NCBI RefSeq assembly: GCF_988242995.1
Contig: NZ_OZ547043.1
Reading direction: 5' to 3' (one strand)
DNA: 64,000 nucleotides
Position 1 is the stretch's first letter; every line of letters begins with the position of its first letter. The position numbers were made by a program, and so were the translations under genes. Positions 41,015 to 42,400 of this stretch are shown piece by piece. A model generated the notes under the pieces. It ran no database searches. It was not told the origin of the DNA and saw only the letters and a list, made by a program, of their open reading frames with translations.

Positions 41015-42400
41015 TTATTCAGCTGGCAGTGCTATGCGCCACGGAAGCAGTTCGCTGACCCGGTTGACCGGCCAGTCTGCTATGACGCCAGGCACATGGC
41101 GAAGGTAGCTTTCTGGATCCACGTCATTCAGTTTGCACGTCCCGATCAGGCTGTACAGTAGCGCTCCCCGCTCACCACCATGGCCAGAGCCGAAGAACAG
41201 GGTCTTCATCTTTTCACGCAACCAGCTTTCCAGGGATTTCAACAGCGGTTTCGTTTTTCGCTGACGTTCAGCAAGCCGCTGCTCTGCCGGCATTCCCCTT
41301 ATATCCGCCTCTATGGCGTACAACTGACCGATCTGCTCTAGGGCTTCTTCCGTCAGTGCTGACGGGATGCGGACGTGCACATCGTGGATCTTTCGGCGGG
41401 CATGAGCCCAGCAGGCAGCTTCCGTTATCCCACCATTGCGATACAGCTCGTTGAACCCGGCGTACGCATCCGCTTGCAGCACACCGCTGAAGCAAGCAAG
41501 ATGAGTCTGCGGATGGATGCCTTTTCTGTCCGGGCTGTAAGCGAACCTCACTGCAGGTGCCAACGCTGACCCGGCATTGCGGTCATCACGAACATACGCC
41601 CACAACCGCCCGGTCTTCGTCTTCTTATTACCCGGCAGCAGTACCTGGACCGGGGTATCATCGGCATGGAGTTTGCCGTCAGTCATGACATAGCCATGAA
41701 GCGCCTCTTCCAGCGGAGACAGCAGCCGGCAGCATGCATCCACCCAGCCCGACAGCAGTGAACGGCTCAGCTCCACACCTTGCCGGCCGTATATTTCTGA
41801 CTGGCAATACAGCGGGGTGTGCTCTGCATACTTCGAGGTCAGCACGCGGGCCAGCAGCCCCGGTCCGGCGATACCCCGCTCGATGGGCCGCGAAGGTGCA
41901 GGTGCCTGCACGATGGCATCGCACTGAGTACAGGCATGTTTTTCCCGTACCGTCCGGATAACCCGGAAGGCGCTACGCATCAACTCCAGCTGTTCGGCGG
42001 TATCCTCGCCCAGATAGCTCAGTGAACCGCCGCAGTTCGGGCAGCACGGCGCCGCAGGCAACAGTCGCTTTTCGTCACGGGGTAGTGATTCAGGGAACGG
42101 CTTACGGGTGCGGGTCTGACGCAACGGACGCTGTACTGCCGGGTCATACACCCTACCAGTCAGCGTATCGCTCTCTTTCTGAAGCCGGTTCAGATCGGCT
42201 TCCATTTGTGCGATACGGCGGGAGACTTTTTCGGAACGACTGCCGAAGTTCATCCGGCGGAGTTTATCCAGCTGCGCCTGCAGATGGTCTATTTCGCGCT
42301 CCCGGTTGCTCAGCTTTTCCTGCAGGGCGTGGATCAGCGCTTCCTGTTCGGCCAGGCGCTGTTTCAGCAGGAAGATGTCGTCAGAAGAGATGTCGTTCAT
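41015..42400 (-). CDS. tnpC: IS66-family transposase (TnpC/orf3), 51-codon in-frame deletion variant
   Basis: 461 aa; about 90% identical to the 512-aa copy at 62404-63942 but lacks 51 residues including the conserved ...[11 protein letters not shown]... region. Confidence 0.85.
   Translation of the reverse strand: MNDISSDDIFLLKQRLAEQEALIHALQEKLSNREREIDHLQAQLDKLRRMNFGSRSEKVSRRIAQMEADLNRLQKESDTLTGRVYDPAVQRPLRQTRTRKPFPESLPRDEKRLLPAAPCCPNCGGSLSYLGEDTAEQLELMRSAFRVIRTVREKHACTQCDAIVQAPAPSRPIERGIAGPGLLARVLTSKYAEHTPLYCQSEIYGRQGVELSRSLLSGWVDACCRLLSPLEEALHGYVMTDGKLHADDTPVQVLLPGNKKTKTGRLWAYVRDDRNAGSALAPAVRFAYSPDRKGIHPQTHLACFSGVLQADAYAGFNELYRNGGITEAACWAHARRKIHDVHVRIPSALTEEALEQIGQLYAIEADIRGMPAEQRLAERQRKTKPLLKSLESWLREKMKTLFFGSGHGGERGALLYSLIGTCKLNDVDPESYLRHVPGVIADWPVNRVSELLPWRIALPAE

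Follow-up and report, generated by a model that had tools for sequence, protein, structure and literature searches.

Our analysis concerns an insertion sequence of the IS66 family inside a genomic island that starts at the tRNA-Phe gene pheV. It lies in a stretch of 64,000 nucleotides from contig NZ_OZ547043.1 (RefSeq assembly GCF_988242995.1), and this whole stretch is called the window here. A second IS66-family element, referred to as copy 2, is cut by the end of the window and serves as a comparison. The features needed for the argument are the following.

38647-40185, plus strand: start of the pheV island, with tRNA-Phe (pheV) at 38647-38722 and a P4-type tyrosine integrase gene at 38920-40185; the element lies inside this island
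40628-40977, plus strand: remnant of an IS110-family transposase gene, abutting the tnpC end of the element
40978-43266, minus strand: deletion derivative of ISEc8 (ISEc8-delta153), 2289 bp, gene order tnpA-tnpB-tnpC
40978-40999, no strand: terminal inverted repeat at the tnpC end (GTAAGCGTACAG...), a 22-nt imperfect arm that starts GTAAGCG
41015-42400, minus strand: tnpC, with codons 401-451 absent in frame; 461 aa instead of 512
41197-41201, no strand: junction of the deletion, with one ACAGG in place of the two, 153 bp apart, of full-length elements
41548, minus strand: W285R substitution, found in the window's haplotype group only
41806, minus strand: R199C substitution (IS position 1461, C to T; A on the plus strand against G in four haplotype-typical full-length ISEc8 copies)
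42450-42797, minus strand: tnpB, 115 aa, intact and identical in product to TnpB of full-length ISEc8 copies
42794-43174, minus strand: tnpA, 126 aa from the ATG, intact; an open reading frame with a GTG start reaches 43195
43245-43266, no strand: terminal inverted repeat at the tnpA end (...CTGTACGCTTAC), a 22-nt imperfect arm ending in CGCTTAC
62367-64000, minus strand: tnpC end of an ISEc22 element (copy 2), with an intact tnpC of 512 aa at 62404-63942

A Pfam scan of the minus strand returned, in order, HTH_Tnp_1 in tnpA, TnpB_IS66 in tnpB, and LZ_Tnp_IS66, zf-IS66, DDE_Tnp_IS66 and DDE_Tnp_IS66_C in tnpC, and the element carries both the three consecutive genes tnpA, tnpB and tnpC that mark an IS66 element and inverted repeats starting with GTAAGCG, as at IS66/ISEc8 ends. 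Both repeats have the sequence found in most full-length ISEc8 copies. Outside the 153-bp gap, nucleotide identity to RefSeq-annotated ISEc8 copies is 98.7-99.4%, and TnpA differs from that of one full-length copy at 2 residues. Judged by its sequence, the element is ISEc8, of the IS66 family, that is, the same IS and not a mere family relative. It shares with ISEc8 (2442 bp) the inverted repeats, the tnpA-tnpB-tnpC order and an identical TnpB, and it differs in lacking 153 bp of tnpC (aa 401-451) and in carrying R199C; its RefSeq product name is accordingly 'IS66 family transposase' and not 'ISEc8 family transposase'.

The window copy has no 8-bp target duplication, with ctttatat on its tnpC side against cactattt on the other, while such duplications are seen at the full-length ISEc8 copies L031 and L032. 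The missing duplication reflects later rearrangement of the window copy and not another type of element. Beside the tnpA end, at 43529-45217, is a conserved module of the island: two zinc-ribbon (DUF7828/Zn_ribbon_11) genes that overlap, a YagK/YfjJ 'inovirus Gp2-like' gene and a gene of the Hha family. The ISEc22 copy at the far end of the window follows a CP4-type set of toxin-antitoxin-like genes at 61050-62132.

A single 153-bp loss in tnpC

The preliminary description of this locus had proposed that tnpC of the window element lost one in-frame block of 51 codons between short direct repeats, and the pairwise nucleotide alignment suggested with it bears this out in every particular. BLASTN of 40900-43400 against 62300-64000 gave two collinear HSPs, 40974-41201/62363-62590 and 41197-42458/62739-63999, which overlap by exactly 5 bp in the window element and lie 153 bp apart in copy 2. 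This alignment contains no further large indels between the two elements, and the length difference is thus one block, not a sum of several small indels. The 5 bp of overlap are the microhomology that had been described, ACAGG, present once in the deleted tnpC and twice in copy 2 (62586-62590 and 62739-62743). The open reading frames, of 461 and 512 aa, differ by 51 codons, and the 51 missing residues are the ones listed at the outset. Under a simple model of random junctions, microhomology of at least 5 bp is expected at about 0.5% of junctions.

The choice of copy 2 as the reference stood only in part. It has the same gap and the same ACAGG repeats at homologous positions, belongs to the same family and has a 512-aa TnpC, but at 85% nucleotide identity to the window element it is a different IS and not its parent. 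In public annotation the exact copy 2 protein is an ISEc22 family transposase, whereas the undeleted relatives of the window protein are annotated as ISEc8 family; the true parent is ISEc8. A more direct comparison is offered by E. coli strain 98232, which carries a full-length 2442-bp ISEc8 at the window's own chromosomal site, between the IS110 remnant and the zinc-ribbon genes. Aligned with it, the window element again shows one gap of 153 bp, bordered by the same pair of ACAGG repeats.

All 51 columns of the missing segment (residues 401-451) are occupied in 103 of 103 diverse IS66-family TnpC proteins. Because the segment is universal in the family, the short form of tnpC is the derived one, that is, the result of a deletion; an insertion in copy 2 in place of a loss in the window element is rejected on the same ground.

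Predicted consequences for the transposase

To see what the lost segment contained we used an alignment in which 102 diverse homologues, 33-52% identical and taken from a representative library of 1.84 billion proteins, were set against the full-length ISEc8 TnpC. The mean frequency of the most common residue is 0.62 in the deleted tract and 0.49 over the whole protein. The tract holds 8 of the 38 positions conserved at 90% or more (A410, Y413, G428, N434, E438, G447, R448 and N450), among them those of the motif D-N-N-x-x-E438-x-x-x-R...G-R-K-N. In the 103 proteins R199, D247, C330, H333 and R379 are invariant, and D311, E364 and E438 are each 97-99% conserved. According to the preliminary description the missing segment includes a region strongly conserved in IS66 transposases, and the full occupancy of its columns together with a conservation above the protein average agrees with that view.

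Mapped onto the catalytic region, the deleted residues fall within DDE_Tnp_IS66, E438 among them. Of the 284 positions of this Pfam profile the window protein matches 1-222 and copy 2 matches 1-283; the complete DDE domain expected of an autonomous element is therefore lacking, with profile positions 223-284 and residues 401-451 (E438 included) absent. A confident AlphaFold2 model of the full-length TnpC (mean pLDDT 93.6, pTM 0.83) places in an RNase H-like core the strands beta1 (243-255, with D247), beta4 (306-309, just before D311) and beta5 (325-328), followed by a run of helices at 331-426 and then by a helix at 435-447 that bears E438. According to the model, the deletion would take away the final helices of the alpha-helical insertion domain (406-426) together with nearly the entire E438 helix.

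In a fold comparison, the best structural match of the TnpC model was the ISCth4 transposase of the IS256/Mutator family (PDB 6xg8), in which the helix carrying the catalytic Glu is the counterpart of the E438 helix (PMC7780238). This transposase has no detectable sequence similarity to IS66 TnpC; searches of PDB sequences with the protein and with the family profile gave no match, and the structural neighbour comes from the fold comparison only. Given the parallel order D247, D311, C330xxH333, helices, E438, the last of these is the best candidate, by topology and analogy, for the third residue of a D247/D311/E438 triad. E364 is equally conserved and, going by the alignment, is an alternative candidate for the catalytic Glu. 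A literature search for published IS66 DDE residues or for this deletion found nothing usable.

Conservation, the model and the structural analogy all indicate that the 461-aa protein should be catalytically dead. With TnpC defective while tnpA, tnpB and both inverted repeats are intact, the element is non-autonomous and could move only if TnpC were supplied in trans. The earlier judgement that it is probably not autonomous is thus well supported, as the DDE profile match is shortened and both the conserved segment and the predicted E438 helix are lost. In a further difference from ISCth4, IS66 elements reportedly need TnpA and TnpB in addition.

Distribution and origin of the deleted allele

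Whether the same allele occurs in other genomes had been raised as a further check, and it is clearly answered: the exact 39-mer across the junction is present at 2391 places (2333 chromosomal and 58 on plasmids) in 2204 of 5426 complete E. coli genomes (about 41%). This frequency also rules out an assembly artefact. The undeleted tract was found in at most 1519 complete E. coli genomes at 80% coverage or more, a count that may include other IS66-family relatives above this coverage. In PLSDB the junction matches 61 plasmids, 60 of Escherichia and 1 of Salmonella, and the exact junction had 0 matches in the GTDB species-representative genomes. The deleted allele is essentially confined to E. 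coli. The window's exact 461-aa protein occurs in about 1000 contigs of public databases, and the allele is an old, very common E. coli variant which is not private to one genome.

The flank on the tnpC side is informative about the surroundings of these copies because the deletion is only 220 bp from the tnpC end. The flanking contexts were distributed as follows.

tnpC side, DUF6404 remnant and phytase-like gene: 2200 places, 2170 genomes
tnpC side, IS110 remnant (the window's context): 127 places, 126 genomes
tnpC side, yehR: 82 places, 82 genomes
tnpA side, zinc-ribbon genes (as in the window): 1842 places, 1757 genomes

The three tnpC-side contexts (2200 + 127 + 82) account for essentially all junction places. 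In plasmids pMRE162, pYLMB10a and p02B17002_B the junction lies within a captured chromosomal fragment, consisting of the phytase-like gene, the DUF6404 remnant and the tnpC end of a deleted ISEc8 that an IS1 insertion cuts at IS position 1313.

R199, which is invariant in the family as noted above, is replaced by Cys in all 13 deleted copies examined, covering four flank combinations, and in none of 4 haplotype-typical full-length ISEc8 copies. The idea that R199C is exclusive to deleted copies was nevertheless rejected, as a few full-length copies have the T allele too. One of them, in E. coli DLL7555 (L033, NZ_CP186931.1), has the 153-bp tract intact and carries R199C, together with an IS100 insertion and the absence of IS positions 707-909; it may be what is left of the full-length form from which the deleted lineage arose. 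Further substitutions are found in some deleted alleles, such as R335C, which alters the CWAHARR motif in strain KE47. Deleted copies vary at 6 tnpC sites, 3 of them non-synonymous, and although this sample is tiny, the sequences give no sign of constraint or purifying selection on the deleted tnpC.

Another full-length copy with the T allele, in E. coli N2409 (L034, NZ_CP189484.1, 2851724-2854165), shows how such alleles are exchanged. It shares its site and its 8-bp duplication (GGTCAGCT) with the copy of strain 2022S01-140 (comparison with L031), and it is a mosaic: about 1.6 kb on the tnpA-proximal side have the haplotype of the deleted lineage, R199C included, and the remainder has the resident haplotype. 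This mosaic shows directly that ISEc8 copies undergo gene conversion with one another. An 8-bp target duplication is absent in all island contexts of the deleted element, the window's included, and only the yehR context has one.

At the window's site, either a full-length allele (L001) or deleted alleles are found in different strains, with haplotypes that are quite different; the window IS differs from one copy at the same site (L002) at 10 positions. The window DNA is that of E. coli, and the adjacent speC-yqgA-pheV segment is 100% identical to that of several strains, yet strains with a 100% identical speC-pheV core match the window in the IS region at only 99.4-99.5%, as does JNE21-009 (H2/H281) at 99.5%. 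The copies closest to the window IS, with 2-3 differences, are deleted ones that other strains carry at the fec/nanS-region locus. These comparisons make recombination between ISEc8 copies visible at this site too, and they suggest conversion of the window IS by a second deleted copy.

We consider it very probable that the window element is a non-autonomous, decaying derivative of ISEc8 which goes back to one R199C-bearing ancestor that lost 153 bp and was then spread by inheritance and recombination. The ancestral copy would already have carried R199C when the segment between the two ACAGG repeats was lost, likely by replication slippage or another form of microhomology-mediated illegitimate recombination, and as the loss was in frame a 461-aa open reading frame would have survived. 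The deleted allele probably arose once or very few times, an estimate drawn from 13 deleted and 6 full-length copies and the count of the T allele (2224 places) and not from a full phylogeny. It would then have been inherited with the chromosomal segment that holds the DUF6404 remnant and the phytase-like gene, and with genomic islands, and would have reached other flanks mainly when ISEc8 copies underwent homologous recombination or gene conversion with one another. One such rearranged context would be that of the window copy, which lies in the pheV island beside the IS110 remnant and lacks a target duplication. The element is an ordinary defective IS copy, already sequenced and annotated, with no new mechanism.

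Possible mobility and retained function, and use as a marker

There are other ways in which the deleted allele could have come to its present sites. The element might still be mobile as a passenger, with a co-resident full-length ISEc8 supplying TnpC and the delta153 element transposing as a unit, in which case several of its sites would reflect real transposition and not recombination alone. We regard this as a serious possibility, though with somewhat less than an even chance of being correct. It draws mostly on the O26:H11/O111:H11/O103 lineage, where the deleted element interrupts the core gene yehR within a perfect 8-bp duplication (TGCCGTTC), a length of duplication that full-length ISEc8 also makes. 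The deletion is present in 60 of 60 yehR insertions among the matches listed (82 in all); strain RM8385 has, besides its yehR copy, a copy in the island context that matches it at every one of the 2289 bp; and genomes with the yehR insertion have 9-13 places matching the ISEc8 tnpC end, potential TnpC donors included. The intact tnpA, tnpB and inverted repeats of the delta153 element also fit a passenger of this kind. However, a target duplication is found at only one of the three tnpC-side contexts, and gene conversion does occur, as the L034 mosaic and the presence of both full-length and deleted alleles at one site show, which means that a full-length insertion in yehR could have been converted later. 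Many transposases act preferentially in cis, and this preference likewise counts against mobilisation of the delta153 element in trans. The yehR insertion may reflect mobilisation in trans. The element resembles Ds in relation to Ac, and KP in relation to the P element, in that the ends are kept, the transposase gene is internally deleted and full-length relatives co-occur; unlike these systems, it has a single candidate event of trans-mobilisation, that at yehR.

A second alternative is that the 461-aa protein has been kept for a function, for example as a dominant-negative regulator which binds IS ends or multimerises through its leucine-zipper/zinc-finger N-terminus and so damps ISEc8 transposition. 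Thousands of genomes have kept the reading frame open, which might hint at a non-catalytic role for the product, though sequence diversity is low, and the LZ_Tnp_IS66, zf-IS66 and C-terminal domains are still detected in the product. The deleted allele is also found in more genomes than the full-length tract, by the counts and the coverage threshold given above, and in-frame deletions in the DDE domain recur among relatives. Against such a role, invariant or near-invariant residues have been substituted, R199C in all copies and R335C in some, and half of the few variable tnpC sites are non-synonymous. The prevalence of the allele is explained by its linkage to a widespread chromosomal segment, and the many in-frame DDE deletions in the databases have their simplest explanation in ascertainment, since a deletion must be in frame to leave a long open reading frame that a protein database can show. 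We therefore think a retained function very unlikely. Little credence can likewise be given to a broader version in which about 41% of E. coli genomes keep the product because it inhibits ISEc8-type transposition in trans, or in which the delta153 element is a mobilisable non-autonomous partner of ISEc8, and the recurrent DDE-domain deletions are instances of the same strategy.

It is very improbable that the same deletion recurred, with the ACAGG repeats as a slippage hotspot and the copies at different sites as independent events: ISEc8 and ISEc22 do have the two repeats at the same positions and close homologues of TnpC show many further internal deletions in frame, but a 5-bp repeat is a weak hotspot, the deleted copies examined from four flank combinations all share R199C and the 3'-end haplotype, about 2400 places show only three tnpC-side flanks, and thousands of full-length ISEc8 and ISEc22 copies gave no junction in other contexts.

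The significance of the element lies mainly in annotation and in the bookkeeping of IS copies. Thousands of E. coli assemblies contain the 461-aa 'IS66 family transposase', which is predicted to be an inactive deletion allele of ISEc8 and should not be counted as an active IS. The junction 39-mer and the linked R199C are handy lineage markers, and with their help recombination between IS copies can be followed in the islands at pheV and in the fec/leuX region. For the O26:H11 clonal complex, the insertion in yehR serves as a clean marker.

Other shortened forms of the same gene were seen in the course of the searches. Close homologues of the ISEc8 TnpC from E. coli, Shigella and Salmonella (protein hits P0057-P0154) have in-frame deletions of 27-85 aa, all within the DDE domain, for example of residues 274-320, 276-313, 182-225, 308-348 and 237-303 in ISEc8 coordinates, and one protein (P0136) combines the deletion of 401-451 with one of 196-228. 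Some E. coli chromosomes (H162 and H163) match the 196-base query for the undeleted tract only over its first 156 bases, with 98% identity, which suggests that there is a further ISEc8 tnpC allele, truncated or deleted, whose breakpoint falls within this segment.
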